IMG/VR virus record: IMGVR_UViG_3300025769_000070
Strand: one strand, 5' to 3'
DNA length: 64,000 bases
Source: a virus
Taxonomy: Duplodnaviria > Heunggongvirae > Uroviricota > Caudoviricetes
Shown: piece after piece, positions 6,747 through 60,219 of the stretch
Position numbering within the stretch: the stretch's first letter is position 1
How the letters are laid out: each line of letters opens with the position of its first letter
Notes under the pieces: generated by a model
Seen by the model: only the letters and a program-made list of their open reading frames with translations
Databases searched by the model: none
Told to the model about the DNA's origin: nothing
Made by a program: the position numbers and the translations under genes

Positions 6747-6765
6747 GCTATTACTCCATAAAAAA

Positions 6766-6806
6766 AGGGCGTACCTTGATTATTAAATCTTGATACGCCC
6801 CCTTCT
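6766..6806 (-). terminator. putative rho-independent terminator (7-bp GC stem, large loop, T6 tract on minus strand)
   Basis: GGGCGTA...TACGCCC stem followed by TTTTTT on the minus strand, downstream of the gene at 6822-7670. Confidence 0.3.
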
Positions 6807-6821
6807 ATATCATTAAATTAT

Positions 6822-11335: not shown

Positions 11336-11970
11336 TATAATACCTTATTAATTTCTTCTTTTATGATATTCTCTATTGCTGTACGGCTTTCAGTAACTAT
11401 CCTCGTCAAAAAGTTATCATCTTTAGTTCCTGCAAATCTAGGATCAACACGAAAGCTATTACCTGACTTAAGCATAAATCCTAGACCACTCCTAGAGTTA
11501 TTAGCATTTACAGAAAAAACACTTTCAAATCCGCTTACAACAACTTGGGAACCTCTATTAAGTAACCAATCCATCCAGTTAATTATATAACCATTACTAT
11601 CATAAGAGCCGGAAGGTATATTTTGAATTGGACCAACAGGATCTATTTTTATTGAAATACCAGAAAATCCGGCACTAAAAATTTTTCCGCCTTTTAAGAC
11701 ATTTACAGAGACTGAACTTTCTATAGCCTGCAACATTTCATTAATTGCTTTATCGGCAACCTCTAGACTTAATCCAAAATCTAGAGCTAATTGTCCATGT
11801 CGTAATTCATCAAGAATTGGATGTGAAACTAATTGTTCAGTAATCAAAGATTTTATTCTCTGCTCAATAAAAACAGAAGCTTTGAGCATCTGCGGATCTA
11901 TTTTCTTAGCTAGTAAAGAGAAAACTTTAGCGGTAAATTGACGGTCTGTAGTAATTAATTTTAATCCCAT
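11335..11970 (-). CDS. hypothetical structural protein
   Basis: 211-aa ORF in the tail module. Confidence 0.4.
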   Translation of the reverse strand: MGLKLITTDRQFTAKVFSLLAKKIDPQMLKASVFIEQRIKSLITEQLVSHPILDELRHGQLALDFGLSLEVADKAINEMLQAIESSVSVNVLKGGKIFSAGFSGISIKIDPVGPIQNIPSGSYDSNGYIINWMDWLLNRGSQVVVSGFESVFSVNANNSRSGLGFMLKSGNSFRVDPRFAGTKDDNFLTRIVTESRTAIENIIKEEINKVL

Positions 11971-11977
11971 GTGACAC

Positions 11978-12199
11978 CTACTCGTTATCGCTATTATCTT
12001 CTTCTACTTCTTCTACTTCTTCAACCTTTTTAATTTTAGGCTGAAAATAAGAAATTTTTACTTCTGGAATACACACCTTACAAGTATCCCTAAAACCTAA
12101 TTTCCCAGAAACGTCTTTATCGAAGAATTCCAGACTGACAATTTTTCTTTGTCCACATGTTTTACATACTTTATTAGCCATGATTATTCCCTCTTCCAA
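11978..12199 (-). CDS. small zinc-ribbon protein with acidic (EEVEEVEE) tail
   Basis: Cysteine pairs CKTCGQ...CKVC; overlaps the upstream gene by 16 nt. Confidence 0.4.
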   Translation of the reverse strand: MEEGIIMANKVCKTCGQRKIVSLEFFDKDVSGKLGFRDTCKVCIPEVKISYFQPKIKKVEEVEEVEEDNSDNE

Positions 12200-12660
12200 A
12201 AGGTTATGATATAACGGTCGTGTTTAAACCCGTGAGGAACAGGTTCGGTAATTCTTGTATATCTAAATGTATCGTGCCCAGCTAATTCAGTATCTGTTAC
12301 TAAAGCTATTGCCCTGTTAATTTTGGTAAGATCGCTAAGATAGCCAATAGTTTGTATAGCTCCATCAGGAACATCTATTTGTCCTATCTTAATGAAGTCT
12401 TTTTTATTACGATAAACTCGCATTTTTATGGTATCAGAAGATTCTACAGTTTTAAATGTAGAAGTCCCCCGGCTAAAACCGGCTGATTCATTTCGATTCT
12501 GTATATTCAGGCTGCGTCTTTGCTTAACTGTAGGTACACTGTCTGTGATTACTTCGACCTGATGGGTATAAATTAAATTGCAGTTCACGCCAAAAGACGC
12601 AATCATCTCATCTGCAAATTCTTTATATTTAGTAAATATGTCAGAAGGAATAGATACCAT
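12184..12660 (-). CDS. hypothetical protein
   Basis: 158-aa ORF in a compact operon. Confidence 0.4.
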   Translation of the reverse strand: MVSIPSDIFTKYKEFADEMIASFGVNCNLIYTHQVEVITDSVPTVKQRRSLNIQNRNESAGFSRGTSTFKTVESSDTIKMRVYRNKKDFIKIGQIDVPDGAIQTIGYLSDLTKINRAIALVTDTELAGHDTFRYTRITEPVPHGFKHDRYIITFWKRE

Positions 12661-28632: not shown

Positions 28633-31600
28633 TTAATAAACCCCATTCATTTTTTCTGTATACCAGTTAGGACCAAGAAAAACAGCCTCGGTTTTTTTAT
28701 TACTATCTGGCACGGAAGCAAAGCCTCCATAAATTTCATAAGAGTCTTGAATGCGGGCGTTACGAGCTTGTCGAGCAGCCATATTAGCCATTAAAAGTGC
28801 TGAATATCGGTCTTTTCTCAGTCTATCTTTCTTGCCCACACCTGTCTTAACTTCTGGTGTATTCCACTGATCTCTACCTGTAGGAGTCTGACGAATTTCT
28901 ATAAGACACAGTTCATCCTTCAATGCCTCAATTTCCATCACACAATCTTCCAAAGTATCATAAGTTCTGTTACTGGCTTTATCCTGTTCAATAGACAATC
29001 CAATTGTAATAGGATCAAATCTGGGGAATAGAAGAACTTTATCTTCCAGATCTTTTCTTAGACCATGATTAGCCTCAGAGAGCCAGTCATATTTCGCAAA
29101 CTGGCATAATTCTAATATATGAAGACCCTGTTCGTCGTCAGTATCTTTTTCCTTGTCTTCATCGATAACAGGCCAAATAGGAAGTTCTCCTGGTAGAAGC
29201 CTAACAGGATCATGTAAAGCTTCAGCTACAGCAATTCCGCCACCTTGAGCATCCATTGCGATATGAATAGTTGGAAAAGCCCCCATTAGATCACGAATAC
29301 GTCTGGCACAATATGCGTAGAAGTCCCCTTCTTCTGTTAATCCGCGTTTTAATCTCTCATTATACTCTTTTCTTGTAGTAGTCCAAACATGAGCTATTCT
29401 TCTATGATCTGAGTTTACTTCTAATACAACAATCGAAAAATTATCGACTTCAGATGCAGGGTCTACACCAATAATATATTGCTTATCAATTTGCCCCTTT
29501 AGTGAGGGGTCAAAGTATAAGTCGCCAGAAGGTAACTTGATTGGTTTTTGCTCAGAACCCGTACATGCTTCAATCAAACTTCTCTTAAAGAATCCTGCAC
29601 TATCTGTACAGAAAACAGCACTAAATTCCATCAGATAAATGCCGTTATGTACGGTAGCCTTAGAACGGGCTACTTGAGCGTCATCCATAAATCCTTTAGG
29701 AATTAACTCAAAAGGCATTCTAATAACTGAATAATCTTTCCAGTTGAAACTATCCGGCACTTTTTCTTCGCCAAAAGTCTCTTTAAGCTTGACAGGATCG
29801 CCCTTAGAGTTTATAATTGAACGCCATCGTTTCCAATATGTTGAGAAATGATTAAAGTCATAATAAGCTGTTCCTGATAAAACAATCTGGTTACCAAAGT
29901 CTTCATTGGCAAAGTTTTCTTGTAAAAGAGAAAGGTCATATCCTCTTTGTTTTGCAAGATTTTTAGCTGCGGCTAATTTGACGCCTTCGGACGGTGATGA
30001 GGAAACGGCACCAAAACCGGCAATAACGTTTTCGAATATGTCACGGGACTGTGAAGCAAATTCGTCTGCAATGATATCATTTGCTCTTAGTCCACGAATC
30101 TTTTGACCATCACCCACAGGAATAGCGGTTACTGTACTGCTATTTATAATCATTCGGCACATGTCTACATCACGACGAGGCCCGCTATTAGAATCACATA
30201 AATCTCTTAATATAGGAGATTTCTTCCAGATGGTTTCCATATATTCATGAAGAAATTTAGACTGACGAAAAGCTGCTCCAATAACTACAACTTTTCGTTC
30301 AGGCATAATTAATGCACGCATTAATGAATAAAGGGATAGGAGAAAGGTATTGTGAGTTACAATATAGTCTTTAGTGATGTATGTATGATCAGGACTATCC
30401 ACTGAGATACATTGCATCTCTTCAAATTCATTTACATATTCCGCAGATATTAAAGAAGTATATTTCTCACGAGAAGTCTGGTTATTTTTTAACCTCTCTA
30501 CTTTTCTAGGTAGCTTAAAAACCTGTTTAGAGGTGTTGATAAAGACTCTATAGTAAGGATTACGTGGGATTTGTTTTCCACGAATTTCGGAATAACTACC
30601 TGATCTATCGTCAATCTTCAATTGGCAGCTAATTCCTAAACTTCTTAAGACTTCTATTAAATCTTTAACCAGTTTTTCGCATGAATTAGTAAATTCAATA
30701 GCTCCATTTTTATTACAAGACCCATCCGTATCTAACAGACCTCTAACAATCTCCATCCTCTGCTCTACCGATGAAGTCTTATATTCTTCTGGAATAAATT
30801 TATCTTTACATCCTACATTTAATTTCATTCCTTCAATTATACTAACTAATCGATTACCATCTCTTTTATAGAATGATTTGCCCTTTTTAGAAAATCTTTT
30901 ATTTAGTTGTTTATCTATGTCAACGATTGTGTAGTTGTTATTACTAGAATCTTTCTTAATTTCAAATCCGTCTAATCTAGTTCTAAACTGCTCAATAATG
31001 AACGCATCGTCACTGGCAATTTTTGGCGTTCTGGTTGTCATACATCCATCACCAAGTAGACATCCCAATATATATGGATCTAAAGGTAGTTGTTTTTCTT
31101 CATACTGAATTGGCTCAGTCAGTGGAAGCTTATACTTATAAGCCCATTTACCAGGAGACGAATAAAATCTAACCCCGTCATTAATAATATCTTTGGTAGA
31201 TACCGTAACTTCCTTCTGTTGTTTTTTCATTACCCATAAATGATCTTCGCAGCAATCAATCTCTCTACCATCTGCAAATTTTAATCTACAAACTTGTTTC
31301 TTGCCTTGTGGATAAATACCAACTATATTACATAATTTTCCGTTCCTGGAATACACTTTATGATTATAAGTAATATCGCCCATACGAACCCATCCTTGGT
31401 CAGTAAGCAATGGTTCTGTACATTTAGTTGCTTTCCCAACGCCACGACTACCAATCAGCATGGGAAACTTTCGCTTCCAGATTTCCTCAAGCATAAGTCC
31501 TTGAAAAGGGACAAGGTCTATATTCAATATGTTCTTACAGAGAAAACAGAAGTACTCAGGCTGTATCATTAGCCAGGTAAACGTCTTGTAAAATTCCTCT

Positions 31601-31716
31601 GGATCGTCTGTAGTGAGTAAATCGAAAGGCTTACATAACTCATTTTTATTATAATTAATATTAAGCCAAGCATCATTAAGTTCGGATAATATTTCTACTC
31701 TTAAGCGTTCAGTCAT
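28633..31716 (-). CDS. terL: terminase large subunit interrupted by an intein
   Basis: Walker A GSRGVGKATK is split after K98 by an insertion starting with Cys. The extein carries Walker B DIIADE and the nuclease motifs GVDPA and IAMDAQGGG. Total 1027 aa, about 669 aa extein plus 358 aa intein. Confidence 0.85.
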   Translation of the reverse strand: MTERLRVEILSELNDAWLNINYNKNELCKPFDLLTTDDPEEFYKTFTWLMIQPEYFCFLCKNILNIDLVPFQGLMLEEIWKRKFPMLIGSRGVGKATKCTEPLLTDQGWVRMGDITYNHKVYSRNGKLCNIVGIYPQGKKQVCRLKFADGREIDCCEDHLWVMKKQQKEVTVSTKDIINDGVRFYSSPGKWAYKYKLPLTEPIQYEEKQLPLDPYILGCLLGDGCMTTRTPKIASDDAFIIEQFRTRLDGFEIKKDSSNNNYTIVDIDKQLNKRFSKKGKSFYKRDGNRLVSIIEGMKLNVGCKDKFIPEEYKTSSVEQRMEIVRGLLDTDGSCNKNGAIEFTNSCEKLVKDLIEVLRSLGISCQLKIDDRSGSYSEIRGKQIPRNPYYRVFINTSKQVFKLPRKVERLKNNQTSREKYTSLISAEYVNEFEEMQCISVDSPDHTYITKDYIVTHNTFLLSLYSLMRALIMPERKVVVIGAAFRQSKFLHEYMETIWKKSPILRDLCDSNSGPRRDVDMCRMIINSSTVTAIPVGDGQKIRGLRANDIIADEFASQSRDIFENVIAGFGAVSSSPSEGVKLAAAKNLAKQRGYDLSLLQENFANEDFGNQIVLSGTAYYDFNHFSTYWKRWRSIINSKGDPVKLKETFGEEKVPDSFNWKDYSVIRMPFELIPKGFMDDAQVARSKATVHNGIYLMEFSAVFCTDSAGFFKRSLIEACTGSEQKPIKLPSGDLYFDPSLKGQIDKQYIIGVDPASEVDNFSIVVLEVNSDHRRIAHVWTTTRKEYNERLKRGLTEEGDFYAYCARRIRDLMGAFPTIHIAMDAQGGGIAVAEALHDPVRLLPGELPIWPVIDEDKEKDTDDEQGLHILELCQFAKYDWLSEANHGLRKDLEDKVLLFPRFDPITIGLSIEQDKASNRTYDTLEDCVMEIEALKDELCLIEIRQTPTGRDQWNTPEVKTGVGKKDRLRKDRYSALLMANMAARQARNARIQDSYEIYGGFASVPDSNKKTEAVFLGPNWYTEKMNGVY
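30349..31422 (-). mobile_element. intein with LAGLIDADG homing endonuclease domain inside terL
   Basis: Starts with Cys after the P-loop and ends ...IVTHN followed by Thr. Two LAGLIDADG motifs (LGCLLGDGC and GLLDTDGS). Classic P-loop insertion site for terminase inteins. Confidence 0.75.
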
Positions 31717-49110: not shown

Positions 49111-49464
49111 TTGACCGGGAACAAAGTTCCCCTTTTTGAAAAGAGGTTTGCTATGGAAGACACGACTTTTGTGGAAATGTGGATTGACACTCACGCTGAA
49201 GGTGGCACCATCAATGACATGGTTAAAAACTATCGTCAGGCGGTGCCGGAATGTACCGCGAGCGATGCAAGTCTGAAGACTGCACTCTCGACCCGAGCTA
49301 CTAAAATCAGGGCAGAACTGATTGCTCTGGGAAAAACTGAAGATGAAGTCACGAAACTCTTCCCAAAGTTCCCGCGAGCCACCAAAACCAAGCAGAATCT
49401 CCAGTCTGCTGTTGCCCGTATCCTTGAAATGGCAGGAGAAAAAGCTGAACCGGAAGGAGAATGA
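49111..49464 (+). CDS. hypothetical protein
   Basis: 117-aa ORF with an AAAGAGG SD. Confidence 0.45.
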   Translation: MTGNKVPLFEKRFAMEDTTFVEMWIDTHAEGGTINDMVKNYRQAVPECTASDASLKTALSTRATKIRAELIALGKTEDEVTKLFPKFPRATKTKQNLQSAVARILEMAGEKAEPEGE

Positions 49465-49556
49465 AAACACTCCTGATCATTGGATTTTGTGTAGGATTCA
49501 TGCTATCCTTCGTGTCTGATGAGTAGTTCAAGTGGGGGAGAAATCCCCCACTATTT

Positions 49557-49640
49557 GCGGGCGTGATGTAATTGGCAGCCATATTCCGCTTAAACCGGAA
49601 TGGGAACAATCCCGTGCAGGTTCGAATCCTGTCGCCCGTA
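49557..49640 (+). tRNA. tRNA-Leu(UAA), class II
   Basis: Acceptor GCGGGCG/CGCCCGT (G1-U72 wobble). 3-bp D stem ATG/CAT with GG in the loop. Anticodon stem TTCCG/CGGAA with loop CTTAAAC, giving anticodon UAA. Long variable arm GGGAACAATCCC. T-arm GCAGG-TTCGAAT-CCTGT. Discriminator A. Confidence 0.7.
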
Positions 49641-49692
49641 TTATAGTTGAAAACCTGGTAAAAAGACAAGGCCAAATAGGGGGAATCTTCTT

Positions 49693-49953
49693 ATGAGGAT
49701 TATTGAAGCCAGCTTATGTTTGAGATTTTACCGATCAAACGGCTGGACGCGAGAAGCCGTTCGGGAACTGTTATCCGATGATAAACGTCTGTCGCGAGTA
49801 TGTCCAAGGTATTTTGACGACCGTGACAGAGTTGGGGTAGAAGATGATCTGCCCCATGATGATTGTGATTACTTCGCAGTCTATGATTGTGGAGATCCAT
49901 TCTCAAAGGATGCAATCGCGAAACATGAACTGATACCGTTCATGCTGGGCTGA
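49693..49953 (+). CDS. hypothetical protein
   Basis: 86-aa ORF with an AGGGGGAATC SD. Confidence 0.4.
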   Translation: MRIIEASLCLRFYRSNGWTREAVRELLSDDKRLSRVCPRYFDDRDRVGVEDDLPHDDCDYFAVYDCGDPFSKDAIAKHELIPFMLG

Positions 49954-49969
49954 GGCTGATTCTTCCAAA

Positions 49970-50043
49970 GGCAAGAGGGGTTGTATTACCCCTTCTTGCC
50001 CGCTTCCGCAGCGTAGCTGCGGGTAATTGACCGTCTTTTTTCG
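49970..50043 (+). terminator. tandem hairpins + T-tract (end of GC-richer early module)
   Basis: GGCAAGAGGGG-ttgtatta-CCCCTTCTTGCC (11 bp), then CCGCAGC-gta-GCTGCGG, then TCTTTTTT. Confidence 0.5.
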
Positions 50044-50474
50044 TCGCTAGGGCACGGGATAAAATGCAAATACATGGTAATGTACCTTGCTTTAAATTAG
50101 ATTTTATATTCAATCTTTGGTTTAGTAACCAGATCTCTCTAGCTCTTAAGTATAGATTACAAACTCTTGCCCAAACTGGCATTGCAGAAGTATCTGTTAA
50201 TATAAAGAAAGCTTATATTGAATCGCCTGTATAAGCTTGCTCCCCGCCATAAGTGGCGGATTAAACACATCTTTCCTTTGCCAAGGTACGTGATTAATGA
50301 GTCGTACTAAGAATTTATACTCGCTTTTAAACCAAGTACATAAATGTGTTCCAAGAACTAACCTTCTAGCCCATTTACCCATTATTGAATTTGAGTTAAT
50401 CTTTGATCATGAGTTTATGAGTGCAAAACGCAATAACTCTTGGCAAATTTATGAAATTGTTTTAGGATTCTATA

Positions 50475-51173
50475 ATGCATCAGATTGCAGATCTCCAGAA
50501 CCGCCTAGATTCCGCTTACAAAGTTTTGACGGAAGATTTAGACAAACAGAAGTATCTGAATGAGCTACAACAGATCCAAAATGAGTTCCCTGATCTGGTA
50601 AAAAAGGAATTCCTCAGTCGTCAGGACAAACGAACATTCTTGGAATTTGGGGAATCTATAGCAGACCATATACGGGGAGAGCGGGAAATTGCCGATTTTT
50701 GGATGGGGAACTATGGGGAACAATGGTTTGGCACAAAAAGTTACCAATATAAAGGCGTGGATTCTAGGGGAAGATTAATTTGTGCTAGTTTGAAATTACG
50801 CTCAACTTTCAAAGAGCCAGATTTAGTCATAAATTCCAATACTGAAGAAGAAGAGTATGTAGAGCTAAAAACTTGCCGCGTATTATACAAAGCTACCTAT
50901 AAAGAGGCTGATATCCGCCATTATGGTAAGCTAGGCAATGTAAACATAGTGACACTCCACGCCACCGGCCAGTTCTCTCTTAATAAAGTTGGCTACTATA
51001 CACTACTCACTCCGAATGGCCTTTCTCTTTTACTAGATAAAATGGATTCAGGAGAGGTCCAAGTAGAACCTAGACCTGAATTTGGGGGCAGAAAATGCAT
51101 CAATTTCACGAGAGAACAGCTTAAAAACCACTTCTACGTTGAAGATATCGACCTAAAAAATGTGCAAATATAA
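50475..51173 (+). CDS. hypothetical protein
   Basis: 232-aa ORF. Confidence 0.45.
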   Translation: MHQIADLQNRLDSAYKVLTEDLDKQKYLNELQQIQNEFPDLVKKEFLSRQDKRTFLEFGESIADHIRGEREIADFWMGNYGEQWFGTKSYQYKGVDSRGRLICASLKLRSTFKEPDLVINSNTEEEEYVELKTCRVLYKATYKEADIRHYGKLGNVNIVTLHATGQFSLNKVGYYTLLTPNGLSLLLDKMDSGEVQVEPRPEFGGRKCINFTREQLKNHFYVEDIDLKNVQI

Positions 51174-51350
51174 ACAAATCGGCTTTTTAGCAATCTTGAT
51201 ACTCCACTGGCGGCAGATTTTATGAATGAAACTGCCCGTCTTTTGTAAGTTATTGGTACTAAAGGACTTAGAAAATGGGTCTTTTTGTGCCAATTTTTGA
51301 AAAAGTGGCGAGCCAGATGCTAATTTGAACAAATATGGAGCATACATCAC

Positions 51351-51378
51351 TTGACAAGAGTCATTCTTGTGGTATAAT
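51351..51378 (+). promoter_or_regulatory. sigma70-type promoter (TTGACA-16-TATAAT) preceding ~380-nt untranslated region
   Basis: Perfect hexamers; the next start codon is at 51763. Confidence 0.5.
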
Positions 51379-51762
51379 GGTCCTAGTTGTCATCGACAGG
51401 CAGATAACTGGTCTATGAGCGGAGTGTATGAGTTGAACACATAAAAAGACGTATCTGGTAGAATCTTGTAGGATTTTAACAGGTTCAGGTGTATTAGTAG
51501 TGTAATACACTAAGCGTGTTGTGTGGTGACCTGGTTCAAAAAATCCCCCATTTCCCACACTCTCTACCACTCTCTCTCTTCTATTACTCTATGTATATAG
51601 TATATTAGTTTAGTTTGTTTGTTTTTTATTTTAAGGGTAATTTTTATAAGTTGTGTTGTTTTTTGTAAATACGCCTCGAAAAAAATAGAAAGCAAGAAGA
51701 AAAATTTAACATTCTATTTATTAACGCGGTTATTTTATACACAAATACCATAGGATCAAGCA

Positions 51763-52143
51763 ATGAACGAAGAAATACAAAATAAGCTGTTAGGTTACCT
51801 ATCAAAGGTTGAAAATAGTATTAATGATGTGGTGGACTTTGGGTCTGACCAAGTGCCGCTTTTAGTCCAAGAAATCTTAATTTATACGGGGATAGAAGCT
51901 GCACTATATGCCACGCTCCAGATCATCTCTTCCTTATTTTTCTTGTATATAGGGAAGAAAATGTCTTTAGCTATAAAAGAAGTAATTAACGATGAACAAC
52001 ATTATATCCCCATAGTATTTTCACTGATGATATCTACACCATTTTTATGTTCTGCTCTAGAAAACATACTAATAGTCTTAAAGGTGTATTTTGCCCCTCG
52101 TATATTTCTGTTGGAATATATTCGGGAGATTATCAGAAATTAG
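51763..52143 (+). CDS. small membrane protein (2 TM helices; holin-like size)
   Basis: Hydrophobic segments IYTGIEAALYATLQIISSLFFLYI and IPIVFSLMISTPFLCSALENILIVL. Confidence 0.4.
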   Translation: MNEEIQNKLLGYLSKVENSINDVVDFGSDQVPLLVQEILIYTGIEAALYATLQIISSLFFLYIGKKMSLAIKEVINDEQHYIPIVFSLMISTPFLCSALENILIVLKVYFAPRIFLLEYIREIIRN

Positions 52144-52254
52144 CCAAAGTATACAATAGGAAATTTAACCCCGAAAATTTAGTAATTTAGAACCCTCCAG
52201 TCATTCATTTGGTTGGGGGTTTTCTTTTATCCTTTTAAAAAGAGAAGGCCCAAA

Positions 52255-53469
52255 ATGCAGAAACTTCAAACAATGGTAGATAATCTTAAAGCAACGAGTT
52301 CTCGTAATAATAAGATACAAATTCTTAAAGACAATCCTTGGTCTAAAGATATTCTCTTTCGTATATACAACCCGGATATTCTTTATGGGGTAAAATCGGG
52401 AAAATGCCGGAAATTATCACACCTAAAAGGTCTCCATTCTAATGACCTTTATCATTTACTAGACCAATTGATTAAACACAGTGGTCATGATTGTGTAAGG
52501 CTTGTTAATCAGTTTGTTCTGGACAACCCTAATTATGAAGAATTGATTTATAATGTCGTGGACAAGTCTTTAAAATGTAGGATTGATGATACAGTTATTA
52601 ATTCCGCATTCCCTGGACTTATTCCTACGTTTAATGTCGCTTTAGCTGAACAATATGATAAATACTCTGATAGAGTCAAACCCGACTGGCTTTGGTCAAG
52701 AAAATTAGACGGGGTACGTCTGATAGCGACCAAGAGAGGCTCAGACGTAACTTATCAATCCAGAGAGGGTAAGTACTTCACAACGCTAGACGCCCTCACA
52801 GAGCAGATTAGAGGTATTGAGGGCGACTTTGTCCTGGATGGTGAAATTTGTGTGATGAAAGACGGTAATGAGGATTTTTCTGGTATTGTGGGGGCTGTTA
52901 AAAGAAAAGGCCATACAATTGAAAATCCTAAATTCTTCGTATTCGACATCTTGACTATTGAAGAGTTCGAATCGCGGGAATCCACGTCTGTACTGAAAGA
53001 AAGGCTTGCCAGACTGGAATTTTCCGGTAAAATTGAGAAATTAGAACAGAGGGAGATTGGAGATGGGGGATTATTTGATTACCCCGATACTTGGGAAGGT
53101 TTGATTCTTAGGGCGAATGTTCCCTATGAAGGCAAGCGTACCTCAAATATGCTCAAGGTAAAGAAATTTCAAGACGATGAATATGTCGTGGAATCTTTAG
53201 AAATTGGAGACTTTCAGATCGTAGAAGACGGTCGGGAAAAAATTATTGAGACTGTAACCAATGTCTCCTTTTCTCATAAGGGTGAGAAGGTAAGTGCCGG
53301 ATCTGGATTTAGCCTTGACCAAAGAAAAGAATATTATGCCGATCATAGTAAGATTATCGGTAAAGTTGTAACAATCAAACACTTTGGAGAGAGCAAAGAT
53401 AAAAACGGTAAAATCTCTTTAAGGTTTCCTACTATTAAAATAGTACATGGTGATCATCGTAAAATCTAA
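52255..53469 (+). CDS. ATP-dependent DNA ligase
   Basis: Motif I KLDGVR, motif III LDGEICV, motif IV EGLILRAN, motif V LKVKKF. ORF 52213-53469; start MQKLQT with an AGAGAAGG SD. Confidence 0.85.
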   Translation: MQKLQTMVDNLKATSSRNNKIQILKDNPWSKDILFRIYNPDILYGVKSGKCRKLSHLKGLHSNDLYHLLDQLIKHSGHDCVRLVNQFVLDNPNYEELIYNVVDKSLKCRIDDTVINSAFPGLIPTFNVALAEQYDKYSDRVKPDWLWSRKLDGVRLIATKRGSDVTYQSREGKYFTTLDALTEQIRGIEGDFVLDGEICVMKDGNEDFSGIVGAVKRKGHTIENPKFFVFDILTIEEFESRESTSVLKERLARLEFSGKIEKLEQREIGDGGLFDYPDTWEGLILRANVPYEGKRTSNMLKVKKFQDDEYVVESLEIGDFQIVEDGREKIIETVTNVSFSHKGEKVSAGSGFSLDQRKEYYADHSKIIGKVVTIKHFGESKDKNGKISLRFPTIKIVHGDHRKI

Positions 53470-53475
53470 TCAATT

Positions 53476-53967
53476 ATGATAAATAAATTTAGACACATTC
53501 AATACACTGATGATGGATGCGATGAATATCAGTGTTTAAGCTGCTATGGAAAGTTAGAAATCCGGTATATCAATAATTGGAAATTCTGCCCAATGTGTGG
53601 TATCGAGTTTTCAGGTGAATTAGAGTGTAGGGAACATAACACGCCGTCGTGGCTGTACAAGCTTGATCTGGATTACCATGATCAGTATGAGCTTAAGAAA
53701 AAGCTCTGGAAAACTAAGAAGTCAGGATGGGTAATTGAATATAGGGATATTTGGTTTAATAAGTCAGATAGCGGAGAAATTTTATATAGACACGATCATT
53801 TTGCTTCAACTAATTGGGCTGTCTATAGAGATAATAGGTCTATAAATATTACAGCTATTGAAATTTTTAAACATCTTAAAGATTTAAGGTTTCAGAGTCG
53901 AATAGACTATAATATTTTAGATTATGGTCTTATTACTGAATATAGAGGAAGATATGTCTCGAATTGA
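53476..53967 (+). CDS. zinc-ribbon-containing hypothetical protein
   Basis: CxxC...CxxC near the N-terminus. 163 aa. Confidence 0.45.
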   Translation: MINKFRHIQYTDDGCDEYQCLSCYGKLEIRYINNWKFCPMCGIEFSGELECREHNTPSWLYKLDLDYHDQYELKKKLWKTKKSGWVIEYRDIWFNKSDSGEILYRHDHFASTNWAVYRDNRSINITAIEIFKHLKDLRFQSRIDYNILDYGLITEYRGRYVSN

Positions 53968-54095
53968 ATTAGACTTATTTATTAGTGGTCTAGAATATTC
54001 CTTTTGGATTCAATGTTTAATGTTTAATGATGAATTCATCGTGTTTGTCCCCAGATATATTACTGATTTAGAAAGTGTAGTTAGTAGGTGTTATA

Positions 54096-54359
54096 ATGAG
54101 TAATTTTGTATTCTCTAGTATGCTACACTCGCAGTTAAACTCGCAGTTACACTGGCATTTATACTCAGAGTTAGACTCGCAGTTACACTCGCAGTTAAGC
54201 TCACAGTCACACTGGCAGTTATACTCGCAGTCACACTGGCAGTTATACTCGCAGTTAAGCTCGCAGTTACGCTCGCGGTTACACTCGAAGTTAATCTCGC
54301 AGTTAGGCTCGCAGTTATACTGGCAGTTAGACTCGCGGTTGGAGAGAGATAGTGAATAG
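54096..54359 (+). CDS. lead mini-ORF of array A (MSNFVFSSMLH + (SQLx)n ...QLERDSE), coding status uncertain
   Basis: Real ATG with an AGGTG SD and a unique N-terminus. Downstream blocks re-start at GTG inside the punctuation with a GGAGAG SD. Punctuation carries stops in two plus-strand frames. Confidence 0.3.
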   Translation: MSNFVFSSMLHSQLNSQLHWHLYSELDSQLHSQLSSQSHWQLYSQSHWQLYSQLSSQLRSRLHSKLISQLGSQLYWQLDSRLERDSE

Positions 54360-55793
54360 ATCGCAGTTACACTTGCAGTTAAACTTGCAGTTACGCTCAC
54401 AGTCAAACTATCAGTTACGCTCGCAGTTAAACTCGCAGTTACACTTGCAGTTAAACTTGCAGTTACGCTCACAGTCAAACTATCAGTTACGCTCGCAGTT
54501 AAACTCGCAGTTATACTCGCAGTTAAACTCGCAGTTATACTCGCAGCTAAACTCGCAGTTATACTGGCAGTTATACTCGCAGTTACGCTCACAGTTGGAG
54601 AAAGATAGTGAATAGATCCCAGTTACACTCGCAGTTAATCTCGAAGTTAGGCTCGCAGTTATCCGGGGTGTTATACTCGCAGTTATACTCGCAGTTACGC
54701 TCGCGGTTACACTCGAAGTTAATCTCGCAGTTAGGCTCGCAGTTATACTGGCAGTTAGACTCGCGGTTGGAGAGAGATAGTGAATAGATCGCAGTTACAC
54801 TTGCAGTTAAACTTGCAGTTACGCTCACAGTCAAACTATCAGTTACGCTCGCAGTTAAACTCGCAGTTACACTTGCAGTTACACTTGGAGTTACACTGGC
54901 AGTTAGACTCGCAGTTATACTCGCAGTTATACTTGCAGTCAAACTTACAGTTACGCTTGCAGTTAGACTCGCAGTTACGCTCACAGTTGGAGAGATAGTG
55001 AATAACTTACAGTTAGACTCACAGTTACGCTCGCAGTTAAACTCGCAGTTACACTTGCAGTTACACTTGGAGTTACACTGGCAGTTAGACTCGCAGTTAT
55101 ACTCGCAGTTATACTTGCAGTCAAACTTACAGTTACGCTTGCAGTTAGACTATCAGTTACACTCCCAGTTAGAGAAAGATAGTGAATCCCAGTTGGAGAG
55201 AGATAGTGAATAGCTCGCAGTTATCCGGGGTGTTATACTCGCAGTTATACTCGCAGTTACACTCGGACTTACGATCACAGTTACAATTTCGGTTAGACTC
55301 GCAGTTATACTGGCAGTCATACTCACAGTTAGAATCGCAGTTATACTCACAGTTGGAGAGAGATAGTGAATAGATCGCAGTTAATCTCGCAGTTACTCTC
55401 GCAGTTATACTGGCAGTTATGCTCGCAGTTAGGCTCGCAGTTATACTGGCAGTTAGACTCGCAGTTACGCTCGCAGTTACGCTCACAGTTAGGCTCGCAG
55501 TTATACTGGCAGTTAGTCTTGCAGTCAAGCTCGCAGTTAGACTCGCAGTTACGCTCACAGTTGGAGAGATAGTGAATAACTTACAGTTAGACTCGCAGTT
55601 ATACTCGCATTTAAGCTCGCAGTTACACTCGCAGTTACACTCGCAGTTAAACTCACAGTTACGCTCGCAGTTAGACTCTCAGTTATACTTTCAGTTATAC
55701 TCGCAGTTATACTCACATTTAGACTCTCCGTTATACTGGCAGTCATTATCGCAGTTATACTGGCAGTTGGAGAGAGATAGTGAAGTGTATTAC
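54121..55793. repeat. array A: ~125 tandem 12-bp units (consensus ACTCGCAGTTAN) in 8 blocks separated by 25-bp punctuation GTTGGAGAGAGATAGTGAATAGATC
   Basis: Read directly. Punctuation copies sit at 54341, 54594, 54766, 54986 (short variant ...GAGATAGTGAATAACTTAC), 55168/55192 (tandem), 55352, 55562 (short variant) and 55766. Higher-order 72-bp and roughly 200-bp duplications. The variable positions within the 12-mer are 1, 4, 5, 10 and 12. Confidence 0.9.
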
Positions 55794-55910
55794 TGGCAAT
55801 ATCCCGATCAGCCGTAAAAATGGAAATTACCACTTGACGCCACCTCAGAGCTTGGTATGATGTGACCTGTTGAGAGCCAACAAAGCTATAACAAGTAGAG
55901 AGTAGATAAA

Positions 55911-56105
55911 ATGATACACAATGCATATAAAAGTGCATTCCTGGAAATAATTAGAAGATACAATATGGTGTATAAAGACACGATGAATGCTGAAGACATA
56001 TATAATGTCAAAAGATTAATTTCTTCAGGTATCGGTTTTTGGGAATCTGGAGAAAAAGGCCGAAAATACTATCTTTTTCCTTGCACGCCGCCGATAACCA
56101 AGTAA
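55911..56105 (+). CDS. hypothetical small protein
   Basis: 64-aa ORF. Confidence 0.4.
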   Translation: MIHNAYKSAFLEIIRRYNMVYKDTMNAEDIYNVKRLISSGIGFWESGEKGRKYYLFPCTPPITK

Positions 56106-56121
56106 AATGGGAGCATAAGAC

Positions 56122-56445
56122 ATGACATGCGAAATCAAATCTAAACCCGAATGTGAAGTAAAATCTTCAAAAAAGTCTGGTAAAGAGGTAAGGCTCTATA
56201 CTGATGAAGCTTTACTAAGACTGACGGGAACTGTCAAAAATCACCTGAAAACTGATGTGATCAATCTTTTTGACAATCGTTACCGTATTAATGTCTGGAC
56301 TGAAGAACGAAGATCAGACAGACTTATCAGTCACTTTCAGATACCAAAAAGTTTTTTCGCTTCTCTTGAAGATGGGGAATTTATTGACAGAACTATTCAA
56401 CCAAAACCAAAACCTGTTGGGAAAATTAATCTGTTCTCTGAATAA
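56122..56445 (+). CDS. hypothetical protein
   Basis: 107-aa ORF with a GGGAGCATAAGAC SD. Confidence 0.45.
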   Translation: MTCEIKSKPECEVKSSKKSGKEVRLYTDEALLRLTGTVKNHLKTDVINLFDNRYRINVWTEERRSDRLISHFQIPKSFFASLEDGEFIDRTIQPKPKPVGKINLFSE

Positions 56446-56493
56446 CCAAACATTGACGTTTAACTACTTTTATTTACTTTTGAACTGAGGATT

Positions 56494-57330
56494 TTGAATA
56501 TGGCTAAAGCTAAAAAGCAATCTTTTACCCCAGAAGAAGAAGCTCTTATTCCGGAATTCTTCGAAAAGTATCTTAAACAACAGACGGAACAAGCGTCTCT
56601 TGAAGATATTACGAAGGCTGTGAATACAATCTGGGCGGACATGGGGCAACCGCCGCCAGAAATTAAGGTGATGGACTCTCCTATCGCCTGTAAGAAAGAT
56701 TGCCCAAATCTTAAAGATTTTGCTTCTCCTTATTGGAGTATTTGGTTTAACTCATACGCAGCAATGTATGATTTTGCCAACACTATTGGTCTTGAAATGG
56801 ACCAAGAGAAACTTGAGAAATTTCTTTTATGGACTCGTTGCTGCCCCTTTATCCTTTTCAAGGATGATTTTGTTTACGTAAGTCGTAAACCTATCAAACT
56901 TGGATTCAATGATGCGGGACAGCTTCATTGTGACGATGGACCGGCTTGTCTCTATGCGGATGGATGGTCAATCTGGTCTCTGAACGGTGTAGCCGTTACA
57001 GAGCAAATCGTAATGAGACCAGAAACTTTGACTCTCGAACAGATAAAGAACGAAGAAAACGAAGAAGTTAAGCGTTTGATGATCGAGCGTTATGGTTTCG
57101 AACTATACCTTGCACAAGTTAATGCGGAATTGATTGATCGTCGAACAAACGATATTGAAGGAACTAGAGAGCTTCTGTATAAAGCAGACGGTATGCAGTT
57201 CCTACTGTGCATCTGTCCAAGCACTGCTAAAGAATTCTGCCTGGAAGTAGAAAACGGAATTAAAACATGTGCAGAGGCACAAAAATATCTGTCTAGTGGA
57301 TTATCAGACAGAATCATTAGTGCTTCTTAA
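56494..57330 (+). CDS. hypothetical protein (Cys-rich central region)
   Basis: 278-aa ORF with a GAGGATTTTGAAT SD. Confidence 0.5.
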   Translation: MNMAKAKKQSFTPEEEALIPEFFEKYLKQQTEQASLEDITKAVNTIWADMGQPPPEIKVMDSPIACKKDCPNLKDFASPYWSIWFNSYAAMYDFANTIGLEMDQEKLEKFLLWTRCCPFILFKDDFVYVSRKPIKLGFNDAGQLHCDDGPACLYADGWSIWSLNGVAVTEQIVMRPETLTLEQIKNEENEEVKRLMIERYGFELYLAQVNAELIDRRTNDIEGTRELLYKADGMQFLLCICPSTAKEFCLEVENGIKTCAEAQKYLSSGLSDRIISAS

Positions 57331-57369
57331 ATACGGAAATTCAAAAAAGCCAATTCGACAAAAATAAAC

Positions 57370-57397
57370 TTGACTCCGGCCTCAGACCGGATATAAT
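57370..57397 (+). promoter_or_regulatory. sigma70-type promoter (TTGACT-16-TATAAT)
   Basis: Precedes the GAGGAG SD of the gene at 57433. Confidence 0.5.
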
Positions 57398-57432
57398 CTG
57401 ACTGTAACGTTACTACTTTTTCTTTTGAGGAG

Positions 57433-57855
57433 ATGAAGATGGCTGTTGAAAGTTTTCAAGAAAATCTGGCTGAACTGCGTTCTTCTGTAGAAGGGCTGAA
57501 CGCCGCAAAAACCGAGCGAATTAGTGCTCCTTCATTGGGAGATGTCGTTCGCCAGGGAGACATCTACTTGGTATGCCTTAATGCTCTACCATCAGGCAAG
57601 CCGACAAAGGACACTCAGCTTGCCCCTGGCAACACTCAGGGTAGCCGACATATCCTTGTCGGAGACGCTACAATCGTTAAGGAAGTTACCTTCCGAGACA
57701 TTAATAGCGTACTCACTGGACCTGCTTTTAAGTGCAACAGTGACGTTGAAGTCACGCACCCAGAGCATGGAAACCGGATTCTGCCGGAAGGCACTATCTG
57801 GCAAGTTGTTTATCAACTTTCCCACAGTGAAGAAGTTAAGCGTGTGCAAGACTAG
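57433..57855 (+). CDS. hypothetical protein
   Basis: 140-aa ORF with a strong GAGGAG SD. Confidence 0.5.
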   Translation: MKMAVESFQENLAELRSSVEGLNAAKTERISAPSLGDVVRQGDIYLVCLNALPSGKPTKDTQLAPGNTQGSRHILVGDATIVKEVTFRDINSVLTGPAFKCNSDVEVTHPEHGNRILPEGTIWQVVYQLSHSEEVKRVQD

Positions 57856-57924
57856 ACTTAGTTAAAAGGGTCTTACAAGGGGTTGGAGTCACATCCAGCC
57901 CCTTATTTTTTGGATAAATGAATT

Positions 57925-58155
57925 ATGAAAATTAAAAAATTGGATAATAAACTGATTCTTAGAGATTATAAAGAAAAATTGTATTATGTCTTGAACTCTT
58001 TGGATAGTCAGTTGTATAAAGATGTTAATACCAGTTTTTTTTATTTTCCTTATCTTACAAAATATTATAATTCAGAACAGGTGTCACTAAATAGAATAGC
58101 CCATGATATGAACGATATGGTGCGTGATCAGTTCTGGAGTGATTGTAATGAATAA
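57925..58155 (+). CDS. hypothetical protein
   Basis: 76-aa ORF; its stop overlaps the start of the array B lead ORF. Confidence 0.4.
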   Translation: MKIKKLDNKLILRDYKEKLYYVLNSLDSQLYKDVNTSFFYFPYLTKYYNSEQVSLNRIAHDMNDMVRDQFWSDCNE

Positions 58156-58315
58156 TTTCCAGTTCAACCATCATTTATATTCGGATTTAGACTCGCAATT
58201 GTCATTGCAGTTATACCCTCATTTACAACACAAGTTATACTGGATGTTACGTTCTCAAATACGTTCGCAGTTACACTCGCAGTTAGAATCGCAGTTGGAG
58301 AAAGATAGTGAATAG
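58124..58315 (+). CDS. lead mini-ORF of array B (MNNFQFNHH + tetrapeptide repeats ...QLEKDSE), coding status uncertain
   Basis: ATG start overlapping the upstream stop. N-terminus similar to the array A lead ORF (M-x-N-F-x-F). Confidence 0.3.
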   Translation: MISSGVIVMNNFQFNHHLYSDLDSQLSLQLYPHLQHKLYWMLRSQIRSQLHSQLESQLEKDSE

Positions 58316-58545
58316 ATCGCAGTTACACTTGCAGTTATACTCGCAGTTAAACGATCATTTTTACTCGCAGTTACGCTCGCAGTTAAACTCGCAGTTATAC
58401 TTACAGTTACACTCGCAGTTACACTCGCAGTTATACTGGCGGTTACACTCCCAGTTGGAGAGAGATAGTGAATAGCTCGCAGTTACACTTGCAATTATTC
58501 TCGCAGTTAAGCTCGCGGTTATACTGGCAGTTGAACTCTCAGTGC
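58175..58545. repeat. array B: second copy of the 12-bp repeat/punctuation architecture (~30 units, 2 punctuation motifs, degenerate 5' block)
   Basis: Punctuation at 58294 (GTTGGAGAAAGATAGTGAATAGATC) and 58454 (GTTGGAGAGAGATAGTGAATAGCTC). The 12-mers are ACTCGCAGTTAN. Confidence 0.85.
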
Positions 58546-58667
58546 TTATTCCCTTTATACAAGGAGTTATTATCACAATTATCCACTCAGACTCAAACAT
58601 ACTCAGATTTGAATGAATGGAATGATAAATATTAATAAAAGGGTGTATAATTATCAGGAGGTGTATT

Positions 58668-58925
58668 ATGCACGAAATGCCAAAAGTAACCAACTCGACA
58701 CTAGACTCTACTCTAGCAACATTACGGCATGAAGAAGAATATAGTAGAAAAACTATACATGATTTAAAAGAGAATAATCCTGTCCTCTATTCTTTACTAG
58801 AAATAATTGTTAGCTCTGATAAAGACCCCGAATATATCAAAGGATTTTTATTAGGAGCTACTCAATTTTATACATTAATATCACGTCAAATTGTTTCCGA
58901 TGAATTTGAAAGGACTTGGGGATGA
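58668..58925 (+). CDS. hypothetical protein
   Basis: 85-aa ORF with a CAGGAGGTG SD. Confidence 0.5.
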   Translation: MHEMPKVTNSTLDSTLATLRHEEEYSRKTIHDLKENNPVLYSLLEIIVSSDKDPEYIKGFLLGATQFYTLISRQIVSDEFERTWG

Positions 58926-59101
58926 AAAAAACATCAATATTTAGTTTTTATAATGCTATAGATCTTCCTACTGAACAGAAGTGGGCGGTGTATTCCCTAC
59001 TCCGTAATAATATTGCAGGAGAACCTTTTAAAGGAATAGAGGATAGACTTGATATTCAACTAGAATCTATTTTACAAAGAAAATATAGAGATGTTAATTG
59101 A
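58916..59101 (+). CDS. hypothetical small protein
   Basis: 61-aa ORF overlapping the upstream gene by 10 nt. Confidence 0.4.
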   Translation: MGMKKTSIFSFYNAIDLPTEQKWAVYSLLRNNIAGEPFKGIEDRLDIQLESILQRKYRDVN

Positions 59102-60219
59102 GCGGGGTTAACACTAACCTGACTAATCAGGTGATTACAGGATCAGGAACTGTAGGTTCCAGCTCTGCATTGCTGGAGTTAAACACTACTGCAACAACTT
59201 CTTCTTCAGCCCAATTGACCTCTTCACGATTCCTGAAATACCGTCCCGGACAAGGAGCGTTAGGCAGGTTCACAGCTTTGTTTACGACAGGTGCTGCAAA
59301 TTCTAAACAGTACGCAGGTCTAGGCACTCCGTCTTTGGATAACGGATTCTTCTTTGGTTATGACGGTGCTACTTTTGGAATCTGCCATATCAATGATAGC
59401 AGTGAAGTCTGGGTTGCTCAATCATCCTGGAATGTAGATGTGTGTGACGGAACAGCGGGGTCTACTAACAAGAGTGGGTTCGACCTAGACCCTACCCAAG
59501 GAAACATCTACCAAATCAAATACCAATATCTTGGATTTGGCAACATTAAGTTCTATGTTGAGAACTCAGATGACGGAGAATTTATTCTTGTTCACGTTAT
59601 TAAGTATGCCAACTCAAATACAGCCACTAGTCTTTCTCAGCCATCTCTCAACCTGCTGTGGAACGTCACAAACACTACAAACAATACTGACATTGCTATC
59701 AAAGCAGGCTCAGGTGCTTTGTTCGTTGAGGGAATCAAAAAAAGACTAGGATCAAAATACAGTAGAGACAACTCAAAAGGGGCGATCACTACTGAGACTA
59801 ATATCATCTCTATCCGAAACGCTACAACATACAACGGAATAACAAATGCTGCTCCTATTGTGATAAATACTTTGTCAATAGCGTCTAACAAAAGCGGTTC
59901 CATTGCTGGGACGGCGATTGTCCGACTAAAAAAAGGCGTATCGCTTGGTGGCAGTCCCTCATTTGCAGCAAATGATGGATCGACCGCAGACAATGGAGTG
60001 ACTATTACAAGTGGACAATCAACCGTATCATACGATACGGCAGGTACGACTATTACTGGAGGCACGCAGATTTATGCAGCCTGTATCGTAGTTGGCGGTA
60101 ACGATGTGATTCCATTAGAAGGGATAGAAATAGAACCTGGCGAGACACTAACCATATCAGCACAATCAGATGATTCGTCAACGGTTCAGGTTGCGGTCGA
60201 TTGGGTGGAGGAAGTCTAA
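59098..60219 (+). CDS. beta-rich structural-like protein (G/S/T/N-rich); Met-free ORF with TTG start overlapping upstream stop (TTGA)
   Basis: 373 codons with no internal ATG. The frame opens at TTG 59098, overlapping the TGA of the upstream ORF. Composition resembles a fibre or capsid-accessory protein. Confidence 0.45.
   Translation: MSGVNTNLTNQVITGSGTVGSSSALLELNTTATTSSSAQLTSSRFLKYRPGQGALGRFTALFTTGAANSKQYAGLGTPSLDNGFFFGYDGATFGICHINDSSEVWVAQSSWNVDVCDGTAGSTNKSGFDLDPTQGNIYQIKYQYLGFGNIKFYVENSDDGEFILVHVIKYANSNTATSLSQPSLNLLWNVTNTTNNTDIAIKAGSGALFVEGIKKRLGSKYSRDNSKGAITTETNIISIRNATTYNGITNAAPIVINTLSIASNKSGSIAGTAIVRLKKGVSLGGSPSFAANDGSTADNGVTITSGQSTVSYDTAGTTITGGTQIYAACIVVGGNDVIPLEGIEIEPGETLTISAQSDDSSTVQVAVDWVEEV

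Follow-up and report, generated by a model that had tools for sequence, protein, structure and literature searches.

Predicted back-to-back mini-genes for xSQL repeat peptides in an uncultured tailed phage

In bacterial and phage operons, coupled overlapping cistrons carry the start of one within a few nucleotides of the stop of the other (ATGA or TGATG). Poxviruses amplify the gene K3L in tandem under host pressure ('genomic accordions'), and the repeats of transcription activator-like effectors (TALEs) are a 34-residue unit with a repeat-variable residue. Segmental amplification of anti-defence loci is described for phage T6 (PMC13096335), and the repeat tract of E. coli tolA is presented as an in-frame variable-number tandem repeat inside a gene (PMC3477136). 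Here we describe two repeat arrays, A and B, in a 64,000-nucleotide stretch of DNA (the window, that is, the whole stretch that was analysed) from the uncultured virus IMGVR_UViG_3300025769_000070 (Caudoviricetes). Array B, our main subject, probably consists of three back-to-back mini-genes for 55-residue peptides built from the tetrad x-Ser-Gln-Leu (xSQL), the punctuation between its repeat blocks acting as ribosome-binding site, start and stop. On this reading the arrangement brings together known kinds of element: a variable-number repeat that encodes protein, an array of tandem paralogues, and coupled cistrons.

As in tolA-type repeats, the unit is a multiple of three, the copy number differs among close relatives and a helical tract is predicted; the difference is that here the tract is cut into separate cistrons by the junctions, themselves a second-order repeat, and lies outside any larger protein. 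Each junction resembles that of coupled cistrons, with an 8-nt overlap, GTGAATAG, and a putative ribosome-binding site ~7 nt upstream, but it is repeated up to nine times running between paralogues, and the coupling is predicted. Head-to-tail copies of small genes, three blocks versus six between flanks that are 96-100% identical, recall the genomic accordions, whereas here the alleles are stable from sample to sample rather than transient, the copies have become divergent paralogues and PADLOC gave no match. The likeness to clustered regularly interspaced short palindromic repeats (CRISPR) is superficial. Although a short conserved element recurs every ~170-260 nt, the 'spacers' are 12-mer repeats, Rfam returned no match and no cas gene was found among the nearby open reading frames (ORFs) scanned, so that the locus does not qualify as a CRISPR array.

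Another likeness is to the xSQL segment of phage and prophage DUF6745 proteins, which has the same peptide motif, a variable copy number and a variable x residue, and whose DNA 12-mer is shared with the window in three loci (L005, L024 and L035). In those proteins the segment is internal to a polypeptide of 300-700 aa, whereas the window holds stand-alone cistrons of 55-87 aa with their own signals.

Two arrays of a punctuated 12-mer

Reading of positions 54500-59500 and 53300-54560 revealed two arrays of a 12-mer with the consensus CTCGCAGTTAnn, broken up by a conserved 20-22-nt element, GTTGGAGA(G/A)AGATAGTGAATAG or, written another way, GTTGGAGA(GA)GATAGTGAATAG. The natural limits of array B are the ATG at 58148 and a TAA ending at 58635 on the + strand (488 nt); array A, with the same motifs, extends over 54096-55817 of the same strand. 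Tandem Repeats Finder reported arrays of period 12, 24 and 36 at 58265-58456 and 58476-58538 within array B, and ~135 copies of period 12 at 54124-55768 within array A. The pattern TTGGAGARAGATAGTGAA, with up to two mismatches, matched nine times in the 64 kb, always within 54339-55784 or 58295-58472, against 0.01 matches expected from shuffles. All 11 copies of the punctuation core GATAGTGAA in the 64 kb fall within array A or B.

A preliminary description of this DNA had noticed the 12-mer and two copies of the punctuation in array B; we confirm both at 58148-58635, with the motifs of array A. It placed the locus at 58124-58560. The repeat locus is real, but its true limits are 58148-58635, and 58124 is merely an in-frame GTG upstream of the ATG. 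It also held that the 5' block has decayed and that the rest is near-perfect. The first block has indeed decayed (for example in the stretch ttagactcgcaattgtcattgcagttataccctcattta, 58188-58226), but so has the last (58500-58635), and the middle block is not near-perfect, since a perfect 9-nt core occurs in only ~30% of all units (130 of 428). At the phase of the tetrad, the 428 units hold S in 237, Q in 297 and L in 352 cases. The edge blocks are degenerate in sequence while retaining the reading frame and the pattern of Leu at every fourth residue. The count of five intervening genes fits the ORF list (55911, 56122, 56500, 57433 and 57925), although it is in doubt whether the ORF at 57925-58155 is a gene.

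The arrays read as overlapping cistrons

What had implicitly been taken for a non-coding satellite with punctuation reads instead as four codons per 12-mer, nnC-TCG-CAG-TTA, giving x-Ser-Gln-Leu, and as a junction of ribosome-binding site, start and stop. The ORF list shows each block as an ORF on the + strand with the pattern M-N-(R/S/N)-S-Q-L-(x-S-Q-L)n-E-(R/K)-D-S-E-stop; tandem in-frame units of the type x-(S/G/N)-(Q/E)-(L/I/V) are present throughout, and the blocks read M-N-x-(SQLx)n. At the junction, a purine-rich motif of the GGAG type, GGAGAGAGA, lies ~7 nt ahead of a GTG start, and the TAG stop of the previous cistron follows 4 nt after this GTG, within the 8-nt overlap. The element encodes both a conserved C-terminus, -L-E-(K/R)-D-S-E, and a conserved N-terminus, M-N-(R/S)-S-. 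In a shorter variant, GGAGAGATAGTGAATAA, the upstream stop has moved to another TAG and the GTG is still in phase with the downstream SQL frame.

Array B comprises three such cistrons of exactly 55 aa, all on the + strand. B1 (58148..58315; MNNFQFNHHLYSDLDSQLSLQLYPHLQHKLYWMLRSQIRSQLHSQLESQLEKDSE) is the decayed 5' anchor block; its S and Q positions have changed and L, F or I stands at every fourth residue. A GGAG motif resembling a ribosome-binding site (58136..58139, + strand) precedes its ATG by 8 nt, and a gene is called here on 15 public contigs. In junction 1 (58294..58315, + strand; GTTGGAGAAAGATAGTGAATAG), GGAG is at 58297-58300, the B2 GTG at 58308-58310 and the B1 TAG at 58313-58315. 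B2 (58308..58475; MNRSQLHLQLYSQLNDHFYSQLRSQLNSQLYLQLHSQLHSQLYWRLHSQLERDSE), the interior and exchangeable block, leads to junction 2 (58454..58475, + strand; GTTGGAGAGAGATAGTGAATAG), with the B3 GTG at 58468-58470 and the B2 TAG at 58473-58475. B3 (58468..58635; MNSSQLHLQLFSQLSSRLYWQLNSQCLFPLYKELLSQLSTQTQTYSDLNEWNDKY) is the 3' anchor block and has a unique tail.

The larger array A comprises eight cistrons of 55-87 aa, also on the + strand: A1-A4 at 54096-54359, 54352-54615, 54608-54787 and 54780-54998, and A5-A8 at 54998-55213, 55206-55373, 55366-55572 and 55572-55817. Of its nine junction copies, the one at 55169-55186 is degenerate and has lost its stop. Within 55169-55213 two copies lie 24 nt apart, the first with GAATCC in place of GAATAG; cistron A5 consequently reads through it and ends in EKDSESQLERDSE.

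The beginning of the chain follows the same rule in three independent contexts, the ATG of the first cistron overlapping the stop of an unrelated upstream ORF. The overlap is ATGAGTAA in array A, behind a leader ending in CYNE, and ATGAATAA in array B, behind a leader ending in DCNE; in the type of array represented by locus L039 it is ATGAATAG, behind a 209-aa gene ending in RTNE. All arrays are oriented as their flanking genes.

The coding reading was tested on 29 distinct blocks from the window and the loci L040, L045, L018 and L039. ORFs in the SQL frame tile every array fully, each start lying 7 nt before the previous end or overlapping it by 1 nt, and no frameshifting indel was found. 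The lone exception to the tiling is a change from CAG to TAG in L045/L040, a premature stop six codons early; in L040, block B5 shows a one-codon register shift that keeps the frame. GGAG ~7 nt before an (A/G)TG and a stop 4 nt after that start are present in 21 of 21 distinct junctions. Across these, the start triplet changes once, from GTG to ATG, with start function kept. The stop changes from TAG to TAA in two distinct junctions (three blocks), and from TAG to TGA once, by the double change ATGAATGA, alongside a weakened ribosome-binding site. The base just 3' of the stop varies in 7 of the 21. A further test, of stop avoidance among single-base variants of the core, was partly circular because the blocks had been defined as ORFs; it was set aside, and we rely on the complete ORF tiling instead.

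Comparison of the anchor blocks with their orthologues by protein-guided alignment gave, for the SQL frame, a pooled ratio of non-synonymous to synonymous polymorphism (pN/pS) of 0.34 with zero stops (p = 1e-6). The other + frames gave 1.0-1.3 with 11-16 stops, and the -1 frame, whose wobble sites are shared with the SQL frame, 0.46 with 14 stops. For B3 and block 6 of L040 the protein-guided value is 0.16, yet a nucleotide alignment of this last block yields 0.49 (p = 0.065). The signal therefore depends on the alignment, and the test, while favouring coding, is suggestive rather than decisive. The last block of L040 reads SSQL RLNL QLYL ESQL ESAL YWQL, with the Leu of the fourth position encoded by CTA, CTG and TTA. 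At the x codon, Cys, Gly and hydrophobic residues are avoided (3 TGC versus 81 TAC, with GGC, NTC and NCC rare), and the first base varies with the second (chi-square 39, p = 2e-8). The units are not independent, which weakens both the periodicity and the x-codon evidence. With the 11 window blocks as alignment, AlphaFold2 models an 87-aa block as one helix over residues 3-86 (mean predicted local distance difference test (pLDDT) 93.8; predicted template modelling score 0.45).

DUF6745 proteins and related phages

A gene of the DUF6745 family lies between the two arrays (56500..57330, + strand; Pfam PF20530, E = 8.5e-20). Its protein is without an (xSQL)n insert. Alignment with the L005 protein, to which it is 28% identical, places the L005 repeat after an SP(I/M)AC..KD motif, and in the AlphaFold2 model of the window protein (pLDDT 87) this position is a low-confidence loop, residues 68-78, between two helices. 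In five loci (L005, L024, L035, L036 and L047) the same DNA 12-mer, here lacking punctuation, is found as an in-frame (xSQL)15 to >41 inside long ORFs, at one conserved insertion point in DUF6745 ORFs. The L024 protein matches PF20530 (E = 4e-15). A search with it gave at least 500 matches, PF20530 being present in 103 of 120 among the matches listed, and all 12 homologues fetched have a tetrad repeat at the insertion position: 6 to >60 xSQL tetrads in 11 of them and x(N/S)E(V/I) in P0066. The protein of the sole cultured-phage match, a Mycobacterium prophage, has x(G/D)QL. A HMMER profile of the 11 window blocks matched 384 cluster representatives, mainly proteins of the DUF6745 type and mostly 300-530 aa in length, in which the match began around residue 70-120. 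Eleven proteins were fetched from the top 150 profile matches, and not one of them was a stand-alone mini-protein of the kind seen here.

L005, L024 and L035 share the 12-mer nnCTCGCAGTTA exactly, and in blastn the arrays of these loci are 78-83% identical to those of the window over 200-500 nt, which supports a shared descent of the repeat DNA. In the window, the repeat is not enclosed in one polypeptide between an N-terminal domain and a DUF6745 domain, and no block matches PF20530. More broadly, the blocks gave no match in Pfam, PHROGs or PADLOC, and a word-indexed protein search with block B2 gave seven candidates, none significant. For the window DUF6745 protein, IMG/VR held no close relative; PADLOC matched neither this protein nor orf107 or orf140, and P0002 and P0119 only weakly, driven by the repeat. 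In the literature library searched, no paper mentions DUF6745 or describes such arrays.

Two DNA 'dialects' for xSQL occur, TCG-CAG-TTA and AGC-CAG-CTC. The second is used by L062 and L063, as nnC-AGC-CAG-CTC. Ser AGC and Leu CTC are unreachable from TCG and TTA by single steps, which argues that the peptide, and not the DNA motif, is conserved between lineages. In the DUF6745 genes (L005 9806-9987; L024 1213-1512; L035 about 11900-12393; L062; L063), 10 of 12 nt per unit are invariant, synonymous sites included, and variation is confined to the first two bases of the x codon. The dialect does not follow protein similarity: L063 is nearer to L024 than L005 is, yet has the other dialect.

A search of IMG/VR for the exact punctuation returned four single matches with no 12-mers nearby, which we take to be chance matches. 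The 12-mer dimer was found in one IMG/VR contig (L005), 39 metagenome loci and 11 genome contigs, ten of which have single matches. The eleventh (L008, two matches) is CAYXSY010000029.1, a contig of a Planctomycetales metagenome-assembled genome that carries an L024-type gene: a DUF6745::(xSQL)n gene at 5886-6958, whose N- and C-terminal domains do not differ from the L024 ones. The binning of this 23.5-kb contig as Planctomycetales is possibly a host clue for the L024-type phage, or else an artefact.

The informative loci form four classes: the same phage, a close relative, an unrelated phage and the gene-embedded arrays. The first includes L049 (99.9% identical to 49389-54382), L041, L056-L061, L065-L067, L069, L072 and L073, one contig of the class being 139,963 bp long; samples with this phage include JGI 3300006802 and 3300025759 from Delaware/Chesapeake Bay. 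The close relative is represented by L040, L053 and L064 (contig Ga0208019_1000295) together with L045, L048, L068 and L018, with 96-100% DNA identity in the flanking genes. The third class, L039, L021 and L042 from a 65-kb contig, has a three-cistron array with the same junction, ending 9 nt before the next gene. The fetched L039 locus contains no DUF6745 gene, and a single-nucleotide-polymorphism classification of L021, L039 and L042 had nine differences to work with, too few to inform. Free-standing arrays were found only in the window lineage and in this one other phage; the occurrence of the architecture in a third genomic context bears out the earlier suggestion of a propagated module rather than a one-off.

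Array B is 1145 nt long with six cistrons in the close relative versus 488 nt with three in the window, and array A has seven cistrons of other lengths in L045 versus eight in the window. Twelve contigs from several JGI and ENA samples carry an identical 488-nt allele; the 1145-nt form is seen in two contigs (four loci), and L018 is a third variant. The alleles of array B are stable, not hypermutable. Their first and last blocks are orthologous (B1 and L040 B1, 95%; B3 and L040 B6, 86%), whereas B2 is nearest to A8 and A2 (88%), as close as to any block of array B. Recent segmental duplications mark array A (A1 and A3, 93%; A2 and A4, 94%; A4 and A5, 95%), and A8 is 96% identical to block 3 of the seven in L045, a block of different rank. 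As in variable-number repeats, the copy number differs while the flanks are conserved, the edges are orthologous and diverged, and the interior is shuffled. The comparison supports gain, loss and exchange of blocks by unequal recombination; the three-block and six-block alleles with orthologous edges agree with the expansion and contraction by unequal exchange that had been proposed.

It had also been suggested that the arrays would be dispensable if related phages lacked both without any phenotype. In 66 IMG/VR loci with a ligase 38-45% identical to that of the window, there is no tetrad run within 6 kb, so the arrays are a lineage-specific accessory relative to the wider group; these relatives are distant, and no close relative without the arrays was seen. 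Among 50,697 cultured phages, blastn with the inter-array cassette found nothing, and the terminase search likewise indicates a phage without a close cultured relative. A 1027-aa ORF (28633-31716, - strand) contains a large-terminase region ~25% identical to those of jumbo phages (RaK2-like) and of Synechococcus phages B3 and B23.

We propose that ribosomes ending one cistron probably re-initiate on the next, which would yield paralogous peptides of 55-87 aa. These would be free-standing versions of the variable-length (xSQL)n segment that lies between the N- and C-terminal domains in hundreds of phage DUF6745 proteins. Unequal homologous recombination at the junctions and 12-mers would add, remove and exchange blocks, while the first and last blocks, anchored in unique sequence, would escape homogenisation and diverge, keeping the frame and the Leu periodicity. 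Our preferred guess is that copy number sets the dose and diversity of a helical peptide that self-assembles or pairs with DUF6745 xSQL segments. Among these claims, the reading as polycistronic mini-genes for predicted helical xSQL peptides, sharing descent with the repeat segment of DUF6745 proteins, is the one on which our tests bear; the role in dose and diversity and the self-association or pairing we infer.

Alternatives, surroundings and meaning

The alternative that survives best, although we consider it unlikely, is a non-functional satellite: an amplified piece of an (xSQL)n gene or of a mini-gene, with frames inherited and unselected, persisting as neutral or selfish DNA. Several points weigh against the mini-gene reading, and many of them would suit a satellite. 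The codon usage of the arrays is foreign to the phage and opposite to that of its own genes. The share of TCG (Ser) is 5% in phage genes and 58% in the arrays, that of CAG (Gln) 36% and 94%, and that of NAC ~25% and ~80%; this rare-codon makeup suggests that the repeat DNA has evolved in concert or spread laterally, and it is the main oddity for an ordinary gene. The window arrays, with 130 perfect cores in 428 units, are less regular than the gene-embedded ones, where the Ser codon is kept in 25 of 25 units in L024, 41 of 41 in L035 and 14 of 15 in L005 and the Gln and Leu codons are invariant. A strong terminator stands 20 nt ahead of the array B leader, with no convincing promoter after it. 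This is an intrinsic-terminator-like hairpin (57877-57904, + strand; 11-bp stem with six G-C pairs, T run to 57914) that ends the upstream operon, so that array B is caught between it and the promoter-like site of the next gene. Distant relatives are without arrays, and the pN/pS from nucleotide alignment is only weakly below 1. Public gene callers are inconsistent, calling B1 alone in array B and sometimes minus-strand ORFs in array A.

Other points in the same direction concern the tests themselves. Blocks and units are mutual copies, so that the conservation of junctions and open frames could partly reflect recent duplication, and the LAV frame is also largely open within blocks. AlphaFold2 commonly returns one straight helix for low-complexity repeats, and the strict 4.0-residue Leu period is unlike that of a canonical coiled coil. 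Our copy numbers derive from short-read assemblies, and these often break within the arrays. Finally, both transcription and translation of the mini-genes are predicted from sequence.

A satellite would nevertheless have difficulty accounting for the absence of frameshifts in 29 distinct blocks despite 12-25% substitution divergence and one in-frame register shift, and for start and stop triplets that change only into other starts and stops, even by a double change. Decayed edge blocks retain the hydrophobic fourth residue, and x codons for Cys, Gly or hydrophobic residues are under-represented. An unrelated phage, with other genes around its array, has kept this junction too, and the three-block allele is identical in 12 contigs from several samples. 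We therefore favour back-to-back mini-genes over a satellite.

A more speculative possibility, which we regard as improbable, would add a function to the mini-genes: xSQL as a programmable, TALE-like module with x as the sole specificity-bearing residue. The eleven mini-proteins would then form a diversified library that pairs with or poisons the DUF6745 xSQL segments of competing phages or resident prophages, or would serve in nucleic-acid readout, and the gain and loss of blocks would be an accordion-like means of adaptation. As in TALE repeats, the gene-embedded arrays combine an invariant portion (10 of 12 nt) with a variable x codon. The unit, however, is 4 residues and not 34, the window arrays are far less regular, and the likeness is one of sequence pattern.

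Marginally less probable still is a cis-acting DNA or RNA element in which the 12-mers (CTCGCAGTTA) would be iteron-like, partition, packaging or regulatory sites or an RNA sponge, and coding incidental. Such an element would explain why synonymous sites of the 10-nt core are conserved, within arrays as well as between phages with DUF6745 proteins of only ~25-33% identity, and it could accommodate the unusual codon choice, the many direct copies and the position of the two arrays on either side of a five-gene cassette. It fits poorly with lineages that use the core AGCCAGCTC for the same peptide, or different tetrads, with no common DNA motif. The most conserved part of the arrays is the start/stop junction and not the 12-mer, the arrays are fully tiled by ORFs in one frame, Rfam gave no match, and the sequence has no palindromic or AT-rich origin-like features. 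Nor is there an intergenic DNA motif conserved apart from coding, as would be expected of iterons or other protein-binding repeats. One feature is left unexplained, namely that a 10-nt core is frozen and the codon usage foreign while the x codon is hypervariable.

We find it hard to credit a reading on the minus strand, as Cys-rich (C-E-x-N)n and (T-A-S-x)n proteins, which some gene callers annotated in array A. Long open stretches do occur in two frames of that strand, public annotations include minus-strand genes of 129 and 92 aa, and the -1 frame has its low pN/pS of 0.46 through the wobble positions shared with the SQL frame; but the frame shifts at each junction, leaving ORFs that are half TAS-type and half NCE-type and overlap their neighbours, and no ribosome-binding site or start is present at block ends. 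The common unit variants TAT and TCT introduce stop codons into the NCE frame (the anchor-block alignments contain 14), every neighbouring gene and promoter-like site is on the + strand, and DUF6745 genes read the repeat on the + strand.

Just as hard to credit is a single (xSQL)n polyprotein made by programmed ribosomal frameshifting, for although a GGAG-rich element precedes the in-frame stop by a few nt at every junction, the junctions come in two lengths from CAG to CAG, of which the 28-nt one would require a +1 shift and the 26-nt one a -1 shift, no slippery codon precedes the stop, and the start is in the correct downstream frame in 21 of 21 junctions, with variants that preserve it. The +1 frameshift site of prfB has a stimulator resembling a ribosome-binding site before the stop; the resemblance of the junction to it is superficial.

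The surroundings of the arrays bear on their expression. The array B leader ORF (57925..58155, + strand; 76 aa), whose stop overlaps the start of B1, has no Pfam or PHROG match. Relative to L040 it shows 10 non-synonymous and 3 synonymous codon changes, the adjacent DUF6745 gene 2 and 26, respectively; the leader may thus not be a real gene but an untranslated leader, or it may be evolving very fast. Within it, a candidate promoter was read by eye only (TTGAAC at 57991-57996, an 18-nt spacing and TATAAA at 58015-58020). The array A leader ORF (53954..54103, + strand; 49 aa), with its stop overlapping the A1 ATG, shows 5 synonymous and 4 non-synonymous codon changes relative to L045. Array A follows the ligase operon with no predicted terminator between them. 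Two promoter-like sites (55834-55861 and 57370-57397) share the + strand with every neighbouring gene; the gene after array B (58668..58925, + strand; 85 aa) begins 32 nt after B3 and has its own ribosome-binding site, AGGAGG.

Several features of the neighbouring DNA were observed in passing. The promoter-bearing intergenic region before orf140 (57331-57432) is 81% identical between the window and L064, with 14 gap columns, while the bordering genes are 96-99% identical. Upstream of the array A leader, a 163-aa Cys-rich (zinc-ribbon-like) ORF (53476-53967) is absent from L045 and L053, which join 53504 to 53939. A mosaic region follows directly after array B: the window has a 373-aa ORF at 59098-60219, L061 has a 512-aa gene, and contigs with the six-block allele have four different genes, of 126, 93, 497 and 340 aa, at the same site (L064 3924-7211, L068, L070). 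Elsewhere in the window, tandem repeats occur in large minus-strand ORFs at 21009-21200, 18649-18772 and 1248-1316; their respective periods (60, 51 and 36 nt) are each divisible by three.

For annotation, the locus is a warning: gene callers split such arrays between strands or skip them, and short-read assemblies break there. If the + strand xSQL reading is true, tryptic peptides such as SQLHLQLYSQLNDHFYSQLR are predicted. Should the arrays be unexpressed, they would be an unusually orderly satellite derived from a coding repeat. If they are expressed, the phage would make up to eleven paralogous peptides from one four-residue motif that it shares with hundreds of DUF6745 proteins. The naturally isolated segment would then be a testable handle on the role of this motif, usable as bait, and the arrays would illustrate how copy number evolves at the level of entire mini-genes in a 140-kb estuarine phage that is uncultured.

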